UHGV virus genome: UHGV-1781828
Reading direction: 5' to 3' (one strand)
Length of the DNA: 12,423 nucleotides
Source: a virus
A program made the translations under genes and the position numbers. The notes under the pieces are model-generated. The model was not told the DNA's origin, did not search any database, and worked only from the letters and a program-made list of their open reading frames with translations. This document shows positions 4,483-8,827 of the stretch, one piece after another (within the stretch, counting starts at the first letter, position 1; each line of letters begins with the position of its first letter).

Positions 4483-5199
<717 letters not shown>

Positions 5200-5217: not shown

Positions 5218-5658
5218 ATGAGAGAAGAAAAAATAATAACAATCTACACAACGGCGGTAAAACCCGGGCTGGCAATCACTCCTTTTATGACACCAGATCC
5301 TATAATAGTGTCGGAAGAATACCCTTGTTCCGGCTCATTTTACCTAACTGCAATAATGTACTTCGAGCACGAAAAAAAATACACTACCGAACTTGATGTC
5401 GTATTCAATGGAGAATCGGTTTTACCTGATATCTCTAGCAATCAAGAGCAACTGCAAACATTTATGTTTTCTCCTGTCAATGAAAAATATGTTGTGGTTG
5501 GCACATATCTTTTCGTTAAAAACATCAAACTTATAGAAACAGGAACATATGACATAATTTATCGCATCTTTGAAGACATTGATGGTAATCTTAGCGAAGT
5601 TATTGATGAAAAAAAATGCGCTCTTATTTCAACCACCCCGAACAGAGATAAGGAATGA
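5218..5658 (+). CDS. Hypothetical protein (146 aa), first gene of the cassette in the rexA position
   Basis: Track ORF starting 19 nt after the cI stop on the same strand, AAGGA Shine-Dalgarno. Visibly AT-rich compared with the flanks. Acidic, no transmembrane segment, no recognisable motif. Confidence 0.6.
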   Translation: MREEKIITIYTTAVKPGLAITPFMTPDPIIVSEEYPCSGSFYLTAIMYFEHEKKYTTELDVVFNGESVLPDISSNQEQLQTFMFSPVNEKYVVVGTYLFVKNIKLIETGTYDIIYRIFEDIDGNLSEVIDEKKCALISTTPNRDKE

Positions 5659-6011
5659 AACGACATCTGTACGCTGTGCCTCTTGACAGGAGTAAAGTTG
5701 ATAATTTTCCACATAACCACCATAATGATGAGACATATGGTGGTGGTAACGGTGGAGGTGGTGACATGTTACAGCGCATAAAAATTCTTGAAGATAAAGT
5801 CGCAACCATGGCGACCGACATCGCTGTAATTAAGTCTAACTATGCAACATCTGCCAATGTAGAATCTGTTAAAACAGACATAGCTAATGCAAAAGCAGAA
5901 CTTCACAGCGCAATGAGACTCCAAGCCATGGCTATTATTGGTTCAGTTCTTGCAGCCGTTGGAACTGGTGTTGGGTTAATAATAAAAATGATGCCATCAC
6001 TACCTCACTAA
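5655..6011 (+). CDS. Hypothetical membrane-anchored coiled-coil protein (118 aa; alternative start at 5766 gives 82 aa), second gene of the cassette in the rexB position
   Basis: ATGA overlap with the upstream gene. An in-frame ATG at 5766 has a strong GGAGGTG Shine-Dalgarno. Predicted amphipathic helical region (LQRIKILEDKVATMATDIAVIK...AKAELHSAMRLQ) followed by a single C-terminal transmembrane helix with small-xxx-small motifs (AMAIIGSVLAAVGTGVGLIIKMM). Confidence 0.6.
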   Translation: MKRHLYAVPLDRSKVDNFPHNHHNDETYGGGNGGGGDMLQRIKILEDKVATMATDIAVIKSNYATSANVESVKTDIANAKAELHSAMRLQAMAIIGSVLAAVGTGVGLIIKMMPSLPH

Positions 6012-6022
6012 GAATCTACACA

Positions 6023-6049
6023 ACCCGGCCTCAGCGCCGGGTTTTCTTT
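6023..6049 (+). terminator. Rho-independent terminator after the cassette (tImm-like position)
   Basis: ACCCGGC-ctcagc-GCCGGGT stem-loop followed by TTTCTTT, 12 nt past the stop at 6009-6011. Confidence 0.6.
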
Positions 6050-6200
6050 GCCTCACGATCTCCCCACCTAAAAACACATAACCAATTGTATTTGTTGAAA
6101 AATAAACAGATACAACTCACTAAACATAGCAATTCAGATCTCTCACCTACCAAACAATGCCCCCCTGCAAAAAATAAATTCATATAAAAAACATACAGAT

Positions 6201-6270
6201 AACCATCTGCGGTGATGAATTATCTCTAGCGGTGTTGACATAAATACCACTGGCGGTGATACTAAACACA
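6201..6270 (+). promoter_or_regulatory. Left operator and PL promoter (OL3, OL2, OL1)
   Basis: OL3 6201-6217 (aaccatctgcggtgatg), OL2 6221-6237 (tatctctagcggtgttg), OL1 6245-6261 (taccactggcggtgata). PL -35 TTGACA at 6235-6240 and -10 GATACT at 6258-6263, directing rightward transcription toward N. Layout matches the lambda PL region as recalled, with several point differences. Confidence 0.9.
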
Positions 6271-6331
6271 TCAGCAGGACGCACTACTCACCATGGCGGT
6301 GAATATACAACGATTCGAATATGAATCTACG

Positions 6332-6346
6332 GCGCTGACAAAGCGC
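6332..6346 (+). promoter_or_regulatory. nutL boxB hairpin, P22 type
   Basis: GCGCTGACAAAGCGC: 5-bp stem with GACAA pentaloop, matching P22 boxB as recalled. Lies about 65 nt downstream of the PL start in the N leader. Confidence 0.6.
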
Positions 6347-6607
6347 AATAACCAAAGTGAACTTTGGGGTGTGGTGAAGCCAGCTAGTCACTGGCAAGTG
6401 CTTACCTACTGTTGAGCGGTGAAGCGCTCCCAACGCTAGCAATAGCGTGGACGAGATGGGGAGCCGCGGGCGATAAGGCCGCCATAACGCGCACGTTGTC
6501 GCATGGAAAAATCACTGGGGTGCCGGTTATACCCCTCCGAATGAGACTCAACAAGCTGGAGCTAGACTACCAGCCACCACACCACCAAAGTTCATCAGGA
6601 GGTCTAT

Positions 6608-6991
6608 ATGACACGCAGAACTCAGTTCAAAGGCAATTCACGTTCTCGTCGTCGTGAGCGTTTAAAGGCAAAGGCATTAGCTAACGGCGTACTGGCCCGC
6701 GAAGAAGCAATAAGTTCAGAAGTATTACACCGCCCTACTCTAAGCAGAGCGCAGATTCAGGCTAAAGGTACTCACGAAACGCCTGAGCGCATAGAAGACG
6801 CTAAGCCAATTAAGTTCATGGCACAGGACGTGATCTGGCAACAGAAAGAATACAGACGCAATCTGGAGCGAGCGGCCATTGTGTACGCGAATGAGTTTGG
6901 ACATAAGCAACCAGAAACTGGTGTATGTCTTCCAAACGTAGCCATTTACGCGGCAGGCTACCGGAAATCAAAACAACTGACGGCGAGGTGA
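6608..6991 (+). CDS. N: N-like transcription antitermination protein (P22 gene 24-like), 127 aa
   Basis: First gene downstream of PL/nutL, AGGAGG Shine-Dalgarno. N-terminal arginine-rich motif (GNSRSRRRERLKAKALA). C-terminus PNVAIYAAGYRKSKQLTAR resembles the P22 gp24 C-terminus as recalled. Confidence 0.75.
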   Translation: MTRRTQFKGNSRSRRRERLKAKALANGVLAREEAISSEVLHRPTLSRAQIQAKGTHETPERIEDAKPIKFMAQDVIWQQKEYRRNLERAAIVYANEFGHKQPETGVCLPNVAIYAAGYRKSKQLTAR

Positions 6992-7050
6992 CTTGTGTTG
7001 GTCGCCAGAAAATGAAATTAGGCAGTAAGCTACTGTATGAGGGGTGAGAT

Positions 7051-7239
7051 ATGCATAAATGTCAGTTCTGTGGATACATGTTTGAATCAAATGAAATGCA
7101 ACGTATTTCGTTAAACCTTATCGGTAGGCCATACAACATTTGCCTAGGATGTAGCGAGAAATACAAAAACAAAGACATGTGGGACGACAATAAAAACGAT
7201 ATCGACTGGAATAAAGTGCCATGTATTGATGATAGTTAA
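7051..7239 (+). CDS. Small Cys4 zinc-ribbon-like protein (62 aa), hypothetical
   Basis: Track ORF with GAGGGG Shine-Dalgarno 6 nt upstream. Two CxxC pairs (CQFC ... CLGC). AT-rich. Occupies the lambda ral position immediately after N. Confidence 0.5.
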   Translation: MHKCQFCGYMFESNEMQRISLNLIGRPYNICLGCSEKYKNKDMWDDNKNDIDWNKVPCIDDS

Positions 7240-7319
7240 AAATAATTATGCCGCATAGTCGGCCTTCTTTTGGCATAAACAACAGAATAAACACTGCACT
7301 GAATTATTTGAGGTGAGAT

Positions 7320-7790
7320 ATGACAAAATCATGGAGCGTACCTTTTCCTGAATCAGAAACTGAACATGATGGAATGCCTGTTTTCTGGAGATTCCAAGCG
7401 ACAGTTGAAGAAGATGGAATCAAAATATTCGCACTTCAATATATAGCTTTTCATCAGACAGAGCATTATGCATGGTTGGTTCCTGCGCATTGGATTGTTA
7501 ATTTTAAACCAGCACCAAATCAGTGGTTACAGGAATGGAAACAAAGGAGAAATAGATATGCAATTAAGAAAGTAGCAAAAAATGCAGAAAGATCTTTTGC
7601 GTTCCCGACGAAGAAACTTGCCATTGAAAGTTTATTGCGCCGGAAGAAATACCATTTGATGAGAATCAAACAAGATTTGGCTGTTGTATCAACTCTTGTT
7701 GATGGGATGAAGAATATTGATACATCAACACCAGATATTGAATATAACTTTGGACACAACCAAGAAACAGAAAATTGGGTGTTTTATTAG
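7320..7790 (+). CDS. Hypothetical protein (156 aa)
   Basis: Track ORF with GAGGTG Shine-Dalgarno; the RBS context is nearly identical to that of the preceding gene (gaggtgagatATG). AT-rich. No recognisable domain. Confidence 0.55.
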   Translation: MTKSWSVPFPESETEHDGMPVFWRFQATVEEDGIKIFALQYIAFHQTEHYAWLVPAHWIVNFKPAPNQWLQEWKQRRNRYAIKKVAKNAERSFAFPTKKLAIESLLRRKKYHLMRIKQDLAVVSTLVDGMKNIDTSTPDIEYNFGHNQETENWVFY

Positions 7791-7892
7791 TATGAATAAG
7801 CACTGTGTATTCATTCCAACGAGTGAATACACGGAGCAATGTCGCTCGTAACTAAACAGGAGCCGACTTGTTCTGATTATTGGAAATATTCT

Positions 7893-7921
7893 TTGCCCTC
7901 CAGTGTGAGGGCAATTTTTTT
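7893..7921 (+). terminator. Rho-independent terminator in the PL operon
   Basis: TTGCCCTC-cagtgt-GAGGGCAA (8-bp stem, 6-nt loop) followed by seven T residues. Confidence 0.7.
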
Positions 7922-7933
7922 GACGGAGGATAT

Positions 7934-8671
7934 ATGAGTGAAGTAACAGATTTAGTTGTTATTGAAAAAGCAAATGCAATGACTGTATTTCAGTCTGCCG
8001 ACCAGATTGAAGAAATCCTTCAAAAGGTTGAACGTGAAGTTATGTCCTTTGTGCCTGATATCACAACGGCAAAGGGCAGAAAGGAGATCGCTTCTCTGGC
8101 GTATAAAGTTGCGCAGACGAAAACATATCTCGATGGTCTTGGAAAAGACCTTGTTGCTGAACTGAAGGAAATTCCAAAGCTAATTGATGCCAACCGCAAG
8201 ACAGTGCGTGATCGCCTTGATGAGCTGAAATCCAAGGCACGCCAGCCTCTTACTGATTATGAGGAGGAACAGGCACGGATTAAAGCCGAAGAAGAAGCTA
8301 AGGCCGCAGCGGAACGTGCAGAGCGTGAACGTATTGAAGCCGAGCAACGAGCACAGCGCGAAGCAAAAGAGGCAGCAGAACGAGCTGAAAGAGAAAAGCA
8401 GGCGGCAATTGAAGCAGAACGCCGAAAAGCACAGGAGGAGGCTGAACGAATCCGGCGCGAGGCTGAAGCAAAAGAGCAAGCCAGAATAGCAGAAGAAAAA
8501 AGAATCAAGGAAGAAGAAGAGTGTAGAGCAAAGGATAAAGCTCACCGGAAAGAAGTAAATAACAAAATACTTGCTGACCTTATCAAGGTTGGCGCATCAG
8601 AAGATGTTGCTAAAAATATCATAACAGCCATCGTAAAAGGCGAAGTATTCGCAACAAAAATAACCTACTAA
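7934..8671 (+). CDS. Hypothetical protein with a long E/R/A/K-rich coiled-coil repeat region (245 aa)
   Basis: Start set at ATG 7934 (MSEVTDLVVIEK...), which has a GGAGGA Shine-Dalgarno and lies just after the terminator. The track start at 7880 would put the terminator inside the gene. The central region is a low-complexity charged repeat (AEEEAKAAAERAERERIEAEQRAQREAKEAAERAEREKQAAIEAERRKAQEEAERIRREAEAKEQARIAEEKRIKEEEE). Confidence 0.6.
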   Translation: MSEVTDLVVIEKANAMTVFQSADQIEEILQKVEREVMSFVPDITTAKGRKEIASLAYKVAQTKTYLDGLGKDLVAELKEIPKLIDANRKTVRDRLDELKSKARQPLTDYEEEQARIKAEEEAKAAAERAERERIEAEQRAQREAKEAAERAEREKQAAIEAERRKAQEEAERIRREAEAKEQARIAEEKRIKEEEECRAKDKAHRKEVNNKILADLIKVGASEDVAKNIITAIVKGEVFATKITY

Positions 8672-8695
8672 TAAAACCAACATAAGGAACCACCC

Positions 8696-8827
8696 ATGAT
8701 TTACGCAATCGCGGGAGGCGCTCGCATGGGTGCCTTCCAATTAAATGAATCTTTACTTGAACGAATCACCCGTAAATTACGTGACGGATGGAAAAGAGTT
8801 GAGGTCTTATTATGCGCAATGAAATAG
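8696..8827 (+). CDS. cIII: CIII-like protein (43 aa; FtsH-inhibitor family)
   Basis: Own translation MIYAIAGGARMGAFQLNESLLERITRKLRDGWKRVEVLLCAMK. The core ESLLERITRKLRDGWKR matches the conserved lambda CIII helix as recalled. AAGGA Shine-Dalgarno. Below the track cut-off. Confidence 0.7.
   Translation: MIYAIAGGARMGAFQLNESLLERITRKLRDGWKRVEVLLCAMK

Follow-up and report, generated by a model that had tools for sequence, protein, structure and literature searches.

Two AT-rich genes behind N in a lambdoid early-left operon as probable separate accessory cassettes of the ral slot

The stretch of UHGV virus genome UHGV-1781828 analysed here (12,423 nucleotides [nt]; hereafter the window) holds the immunity and early region of a lambdoid prophage, with the PL operon on the plus strand. 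Directly downstream of the antiterminator gene N lie two genes on this strand, open reading frame (ORF) 1 (62 amino acids; 7051-7239) and ORF2 (156 amino acids; 7320-7790), which an earlier note, made from the sequence alone, had singled out as an AT-rich pair in the neighbourhood of lambda ral and sieB. Position and composition are as described there: the GC content is 35.4% for ORF1 and 36.5% for ORF2, as compared with 49.2% for N and 44.9% for the whole window. Both are true coding genes under strong purifying selection. Compared with orthologues of 63-73% amino acid identity and the same length, their non-synonymous divergence (Ka) is low (0.16-0.28) while synonymous sites are saturated, and each of the eight nucleotide differences between ORF2 and its counterpart in phage 933W is a synonymous third-position change. 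We regard it as very probable that the two genes are independent accessory cassettes of the slot filled in lambda by ral, the restriction alleviation (anti-restriction) gene of that phage.

ORF1 matches phrog_19863 over its entire length (residues 1-62 of 62; E = 5.6e-47). Its DNA is 100% identical to that of phage mEp213 over positions 7040-7286, where the gene is gp50 (YP_007112393.1); the same gene is CDS0039 in phage Louie, and HK225 gp39 is a copy with 68% identity. The family is small and restricted to the Enterobacterales, Providencia included. The two CxxC pairs, seen in the earlier note as a possible zinc ribbon, are fully conserved, as C4, C7, C31, and C34 are invariant in 11 homologues (65-98% identity). 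An MQRISLN..GRPY motif is conserved between the two knuckles, and the conserved C-terminal tail, which is acidic and contains Trp, has W44, D45, N49, D50, I51, W53, P57, and D60 as invariant residues. This pattern of conservation supports the assignment of ORF1 as a putative C4 zinc ribbon with an acidic, Trp-containing tail that falls into no named family; Pfam returned generic zinc-ribbon matches alone, all of them weak and sub-threshold. A scan of ORF1 with PADLOC yielded zero matches, a comparison with YdaE gave no match, and searches of the PDB sequences with profiles of the ORF1 and ORF2 families returned nothing.

Two characterised proteins of lambdoid PL operons invite comparison with ORF1. 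Lambda Ral (66 amino acids) is likewise an early PL gene product that contains Cys, is similar in size, and is encoded at the same position ahead of the same 3' element leading into PreS/tL2a. However, the cysteine spacing of the two proteins differs, BLASTP found no alignment between them at E<=100, and the Ral family is absent from the Pfam scans of both ORF1 and ORF2. RalR/Lar of the Rac prophage, a 64-amino-acid zinc-ribbon restriction-alleviation protein/DNase toxin, resembles ORF1 as a small CxxC...CxxC protein of a lambdoid PL operon. In an hhalign comparison of the ORF1 family with K-12 RalR both knuckles align weakly (probability 9.7%, pairwise E = 0.0033), pairing KCQFCG with PCPFCG and ICLGCSEK with KCNGCESR; but the spacing of the knuckles differs, RalR does not possess the acidic Trp-containing tail, and the Lar family model is absent from the Pfam and NCBIfam scans of ORF1 (E<=1-10). 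The likeness to RalR/Lar may thus serve as a lead, not as a sign of membership. The idea of the earlier note that the small protein might be a DNA mimic is not borne out: DNA mimics of the Ocr/ArdA type have a strongly acidic surface, whereas ORF1 has an isoelectric point (pI) of 5.1 (10 acidic versus 8 basic residues, net charge about -2) and ORF2 one of 9.07.

The annotation pipeline PGAP skipped ORF1 in all six complete Escherichia coli genomes that carry the gene (at about 5658-5846 of one retrieved locus, for example), and the exact protein is encoded on 542 contigs of a large assembly collection. Some ORF1 fragments are labelled "antitermination protein N, partial" by PGAP. In one metagenomic variant (P0037), ORF1 is fused after residue 49 to the last 25 residues of a TolA-like protein (window 8594-8671), a fusion that therefore implies a deletion across ORF2 and PreS in that phage.

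ORF2 is the more widespread of the two genes. It matches phrog_1636 over residues 1-156 of 156 (E = 2.7e-112) and is the same protein as L0079 of 933W (ST933Wp19, NP_049479.1; 100% amino acid identity) and gp45 of HK97 (99.4%). In both of these phages its gene is the first after N and lies just ahead of a tL2a-type terminator; in the window, by contrast, the ORF1 cassette and half of a conserved boundary element intervene between N and ORF2. The gene is present in 598 of 5426 complete E. coli genomes (11%), some of which have as many as four copies, and at least 1000 contigs of a large collection encode the identical protein, always under the name "hypothetical" or "prophage protein". Lambdoid prophages of Pectobacterium, Brenneria, Cronobacter, Rosenbergiella, and others carry close orthologues (55-85% identity), which without exception belong to early operons and directly follow N or immediately precede xis-int. 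An exhaustive profile search extended the family to 87 cluster representatives, mostly of 130-160 amino acids at about 20-25% identity, and relatives also occur in virulent phages of many hosts. The genomic neighbourhood was read for two distant homologues, both of which belong to arrays of small early phage genes, and one orthologue is the first gene of an early operon beside a ParB-like helix-turn-helix protein. Two multi-domain candidates (P0074, P0088) were rejected as repeat-driven false positives. A search of plasmids for anti-defence "leading region" contexts of ORF2 gave only 11 non-mobilizable records, which are probably phage contigs.

The earlier note had called the fold of this basic, Trp-rich protein unknown, and in terms of solved structures it is. 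Neither Pfam, NCBIfam, nor the PDB gave a sequence match, and the HK97 gp45/L0079 family has no Pfam family or solved structure; the best PADLOC hit, to a Cas1 model (E = 0.018, 12 bits, 45 residues), is noise. With 20 close homologues AlphaFold2 reached a predicted local distance difference test score (pLDDT) of 60; with the 74-sequence alignment from the exhaustive search, the pLDDT was 95.6 and the predicted template modelling score (pTM) 0.83. ORF2 is predicted by this confident model to be a compact soluble alpha/beta domain. Long strands form a three-stranded antiparallel sheet (residues 19-55), accompanied by two short helices and a short strand (83-86); the most conserved, K/R-rich motif lies on a 33-residue helix (98-130), and the C-terminal tail is conserved as well. 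A fold search with the model found no structural neighbour in the PDB, its only neighbours being uncharacterised proteins of diverse phages. For both proteins, the family searches (Pfam, NCBIfam, PADLOC, and PHROGs) gave matches to PHROGs of unknown function only.

What surrounds the two genes identifies the slot. Behind the ORF1 stop codon stands the conserved element that in lambda lies behind ral, which puts ORF1 exactly into the ral slot and makes the neighbourhood proposed in the earlier note precise. This element is present in the window in two halves, 7240-7301 (plus strand), which ends in GAATAAACACTGCACTG, and 7796-7921, both nearly identical to the corresponding sequence of lambda, Sf6, and Louie. 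Lambda (between ral and ea10), Sf6 (annotated as "bsq4; boundary sequence" plus "tL2A"), and Louie have the element in one unbroken piece; in the window, HK97, and 933W, in contrast, it is interrupted or truncated by the ORF2 cassette. Here, the ORF2 cassette is inserted at GCACTG^TGTATTC, 9 nt upstream of the first hairpin of the element, and GCACTG stands on both sides of it; on the distal side, the element resumes at 7796-7832 (plus strand), with the repeated GCACTG at 7801-7806 and the first hairpin at 7805-7832. Immediately 3' of ORF1, at 7249-7277 (plus strand), a small hairpin (ATGCCG...GGCAT/GCCG-CATAGT-CGGC) is followed by CTTCTTTT; after ral in lambda and gene 34 in Sf6 a short GC stem and a T-run are likewise kept, with different stem bases. 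The folding energy of this hairpin is no better than that of shuffled sequences (z = -0.5), and it possibly acts as a weak terminator or marks a site of processing.

On their upstream sides the cassettes are joined by linkers. As the earlier note had observed, ORF1 and ORF2 have near-identical ribosome-binding site (RBS) contexts: the window contains the 11-mer GGTGAGATATG, start codon included, at these two genes and nowhere else (7043-7053 and 7312-7322; chance expectation 0.14; two matches reached in 3 of 200 shuffles), and the similarity of the start contexts spans 25 nt. The left linker, which carries the ORF1 RBS (7010-7050, plus strand), corresponds by homology to the end of N genes of the mEp213 type, their 3' terminal sequence making up the 40 nt ahead of the ORF1 ATG. 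A homologue of this left linker precedes L0079 in 933W and ECs1180 in prophage Sp5. In mEp213-type phages, the N stop codon (TGA) and the ORF1 ATG are 3 nt apart and in frame. A remnant frame of 40 codons (6925-7047, plus strand), ending in KMKLGSKLLYEG and a stop codon, is what remains of the 3' end of an mEp213-type N gene, downstream of the intact 933W-type N. The linker with the RBS of the ORF2 cassette (7302-7319, plus strand; AATTATTTGAGGTGAGAT) is the same as that upstream of L0079 in 933W. Because the linker also stands upstream of unrelated cassettes, the shared RBS context is best read, from the sequence comparisons, as a recombination linker and not as a sign of co-regulation. Each of the two cassettes is bracketed by short conserved linkers that it shares with unrelated cassettes of other phages, such as lambda ral, Sp5 ECs1180, and Sf6 gene 34, and homologous recombination at these sites would shuffle the cassettes between phages. 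In one E. coli assembly (GCA_000351345.1, KB732598.1), the N-ORF1-ORF2 block stands twice in direct tandem, which reflects either a genuine duplication mediated by the repeated linkers or an error of the assembly.

The strong intrinsic terminator noted earlier behind the two genes is real, in that a stem at 7893-7914 is followed by a run of seven T residues; it does not abut ORF2 but starts 103 nt beyond it. The conserved non-coding element of which it is a part (7796-7925) folds with -45.4 kcal/mol (z = -5.3 versus shuffled sequences). From 7801 to about 7915 it is identical to the lambda ral-ea10 region save for one substitution, and the sequences diverge from about 7915. By this identity the terminator (7893-7921, plus strand; 8-bp GC-rich stem, 6-nt loop, T7) corresponds to lambda tL2a and forms the 3' end of a predicted homologue of PreS (LPR1; 7834-7921, plus strand, about 88 nt), whose boundaries follow the published length. 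In lambda, PreS is an Hfq-dependent small RNA of about 88 nt that ends at tL2a and activates dnaN translation (10.1101/2024.10.31.621285, 2024 preprint). If the terminator is the PreS 3' end, any cassette of the slot would therefore have PreS as its 3' untranslated region. The substitution, an A at about 7888 where lambda has a C, lies in a single-stranded stretch before the terminator and could touch the seed region of PreS. The next gene of the PL operon, which encodes a coiled-coil, "TolA-like" protein of the Sf6 gene 33 family (7934-8671, plus strand), marks the right edge of the slot.

The variety of genes in this slot was surveyed with 121 IMG/VR loci that contain the first PreS hairpin, 107 of which have at least 800 nt of upstream sequence. 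In these 107 loci the upstream gene was Ral in 46 cases, ORF2 in 19, and ECs1180 in five, with none of these in the other 37; the last gene before the hairpin belonged to at least 16 unrelated families, one of them a membrane protein. Ral and ORF2 occurred together in none of the 107 loci (naive hypergeometric P = 5e-6, uncorrected for the relatedness of the loci). ECs_1180 of E. coli Sakai (prophage Sp5; 4721-4972, minus strand, of the retrieved locus) is an 83-amino-acid acidic cassette of the same slot, flanked by the same linkers, and its last residues (NKAA and stop) are encoded by the start of the boundary sequence, as they are in Ral. It was rejected as a homologue, being a different cassette of this slot.

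Further upstream, the PL promoter (6235-6263, plus strand; TTGACA-17-GATACT) is the sole sigma-70-like site predicted in 6000-8700. It is followed by nutL (6280-6346, plus strand; 65 of 67 positions identical to the annotated nutL of 933W) and by the N gene (6608-6991, plus strand), which encodes a 127-residue antiterminator of the 933W/H-19B type (Pfam N_peptide, E = 2.1e-15). In a consensus scan, the interval from PL to tL2a yielded neither a promoter nor an intrinsic terminator, so that ORF1 and ORF2 would be transcribed together with N from PL. Repression of the prophage would then keep both genes off, and their products would appear at the onset of infection or induction, at a stage when N-dependent read-through is not yet required and hence independently of antitermination.

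The distribution of the two genes shows that they are not an obligate pair, as each stands alone in plaque-forming phages, and the functional pair suggested in the earlier note loses its footing, each gene occurring without the other across phages and genomes. Set against the 598 complete E. coli genomes with ORF2 are six with ORF1, and both genes are present in just one of these six. ORF2 occurs without ORF1 in HK97, in 933W, and in nearly all of the 598 genomes. Conversely, ORF1 occurs without ORF2 in mEp213, Louie, HK225, ECONIH5, and 13 of 13 divergent orthologue loci; in mEp213 and Louie it directly follows N, as it does here, but behind a different N type and with no ORF2 next to it. ORF2 stands downstream of the E. 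coli ORF1 allele at eight of 10 sites from the large assembly collection and at five of 12 informative IMG/VR loci, and this tandem was found behind three different N types. In the adjacent tandems the start-to-start distance is 269-271 nt, and two further tandems have an extra gene in between. Because the adjacent tandems share this spacing, the arrangement looks like one ancestral recombinant junction that has spread by descent.

We consider it reasonably probable, taking position and function together, that ORF1 and ORF2 are independent early accessory cassettes of the ral slot whose products act in the cytoplasm on targets of the host; as stated at the outset, the part of this reading that concerns cassettes and slot deserves considerably more confidence. 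Both would be soluble cytoplasmic proteins that engage host components early in infection, and neither has a significant match to a membrane or secretion family in Pfam or NCBIfam, scans in which transmembrane segments and signal peptides were not predicted directly. Being basic and Trp-rich, with conserved basic residues on its long helix, ORF2 may bind nucleic acid or an acidic host protein, and ORF1, with its putative zinc ribbon and its acidic/aromatic tail, may dock on a host protein. By analogy with Ral, counter-defence or host takeover would be the single most likely class of function, an assignment that we make tentatively. More speculative still is the possibility that the ORF2 family represents an unrecognised fold class of immediate-early effector, which would disarm a defence or take over a host process by binding host nucleic acid or protein and would functionally take the place of Ral in roughly a fifth of the PL operons of lambdoid phages, those of major Shiga-toxin phages included, with ORF1 as a second, independent effector of the slot.

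Several points weigh against this reading of the two genes. Occupancy of the ral slot says little about function, since membrane proteins and many unrelated genes are found there too, and the mutual exclusion of Ral and ORF2 may reflect merely slot architecture and the shared ancestry of the sampled loci. ORF2 follows the E. coli ORF1 allele in about half of the informative contexts, above a background of roughly 18%, so that some functional link between the two is possible. The promoter and terminator scan used a crude consensus that weak promoters and Rho-dependent terminators could escape, and it did not call the hairpin and T-rich run at about 7250-7272 a terminator. That ORF2 has relatives in virulent phages of many hosts agrees no less well with a general phage function than with anti-defence. 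A search of the literature for L0079, HK97 gp45, the accessions, and the locus tags found no functional study, and no characterised homologue emerged. Neither protein is listed in the supplementary data of the accessory-gene screen by Silas et al. (PMC12373910).

The strongest alternative is a regulatory or DNA-transaction role internal to the phage. Instead of countering host immunity, ORF1 and ORF2 would then work for the early programme of the phage itself, for example as a nucleic-acid-binding modulator of transcription, of replication/recombination, or of the choice between lysis and lysogeny, in the manner of cIII, Kil, Ea10, or the genes of the Xis region. The basic character of ORF2 and its conserved, K/R-rich long helix agree with such a role, as do the orthologues that always reside in early operons beside recombination or regulatory genes, and the spread of the family across many unrelated phages suggests a general phage need. 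However, ORF2 is patchy among near-identical lambdoid phages and is swapped there for unrelated cassettes; it is therefore dispensable for the core programme. In addition, no likeness of ORF2 to a known DNA- or RNA-binding fold was found. We hence regard this alternative as rather unlikely, although it fares better than the two that follow.

A further possibility is that one or both genes are prophage defence or superinfection-exclusion genes of the sieB/rexAB kind, expressed by the lysogen. In lambda and P22, sieB sits in this very neighbourhood, the AT-rich, moron-like composition is typical of such genes, and the slot-mate ECs1180 is one of only two early genes of Sp5 that could not be deleted from the lysogen (PMC5155283). 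Genes of the SieB/Rex type are marked by a promoter of their own and by membrane association; the consensus scan, by contrast, detected no promoter-like site from PL to ORF1 and ORF2, which lie within the PL unit upstream of tL2a, and PADLOC, Pfam, and NCBIfam gave no meaningful defence match and no significant membrane-protein family match for either protein, ORF2 being predicted as a compact soluble domain. Moreover, ORF2 has relatives in virulent phages, which have no lysogen to protect, and we judge exclusion to be improbable. Least probable of all is a two-component system, for anti-defence or another task, in which ORF1 and ORF2 work together: adjacency, common orientation, the shared RBS context, and the frequency of the E. 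coli tandem behind three N types speak for it, but the two genes are very unequally distributed and each is found alone, the constant spacing points to one inherited junction, and the RBS linker also precedes unrelated cassettes. What we favour thus remains two independent cassettes with early, cytoplasmic action on the host.

Elsewhere in the window, two overlapping AT-rich genes occupy the position of lambda rexA/rexB (5218-6011, plus strand), between a lambda-type cI gene (4486-5199) and a strong terminator at 6022-6043. The first (5218-5658) encodes 146 amino acids at 36% GC and the second (5655-6011) 118 amino acids at 41.5% GC; neither has a significant match in Pfam, NCBIfam, or PADLOC, and both match PHROGs of unknown function weakly. 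Because of their position, they are probably co-transcribed with cI in the lysogen, and they are candidates for a prophage-encoded exclusion system. Both are also present in E. coli ECONIH5.

Mosaic accessory genes between boundary sequences are a known feature of the lambdoid early-left operon, and both ORF1 and ORF2 had been deposited as hypothetical. New are the exact placement of the two genes relative to ral and PreS, the demonstration that they are separate cassettes, and, for ORF2, a confident structural model with no solved counterpart together with the link to a wide phage family. These data do not overturn the current understanding and come as no surprise, but they define a tractable target and show concretely how the slot between N and PreS serves as a site of cassette exchange. 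ORF2 is among the commonest uncharacterised prophage genes of E. coli, and in HK97 as well as in the Shiga toxin (Stx) phage 933W it comes first behind N; knowledge of its function would annotate thousands of genomes, along with a protein family found in many unrelated phages.

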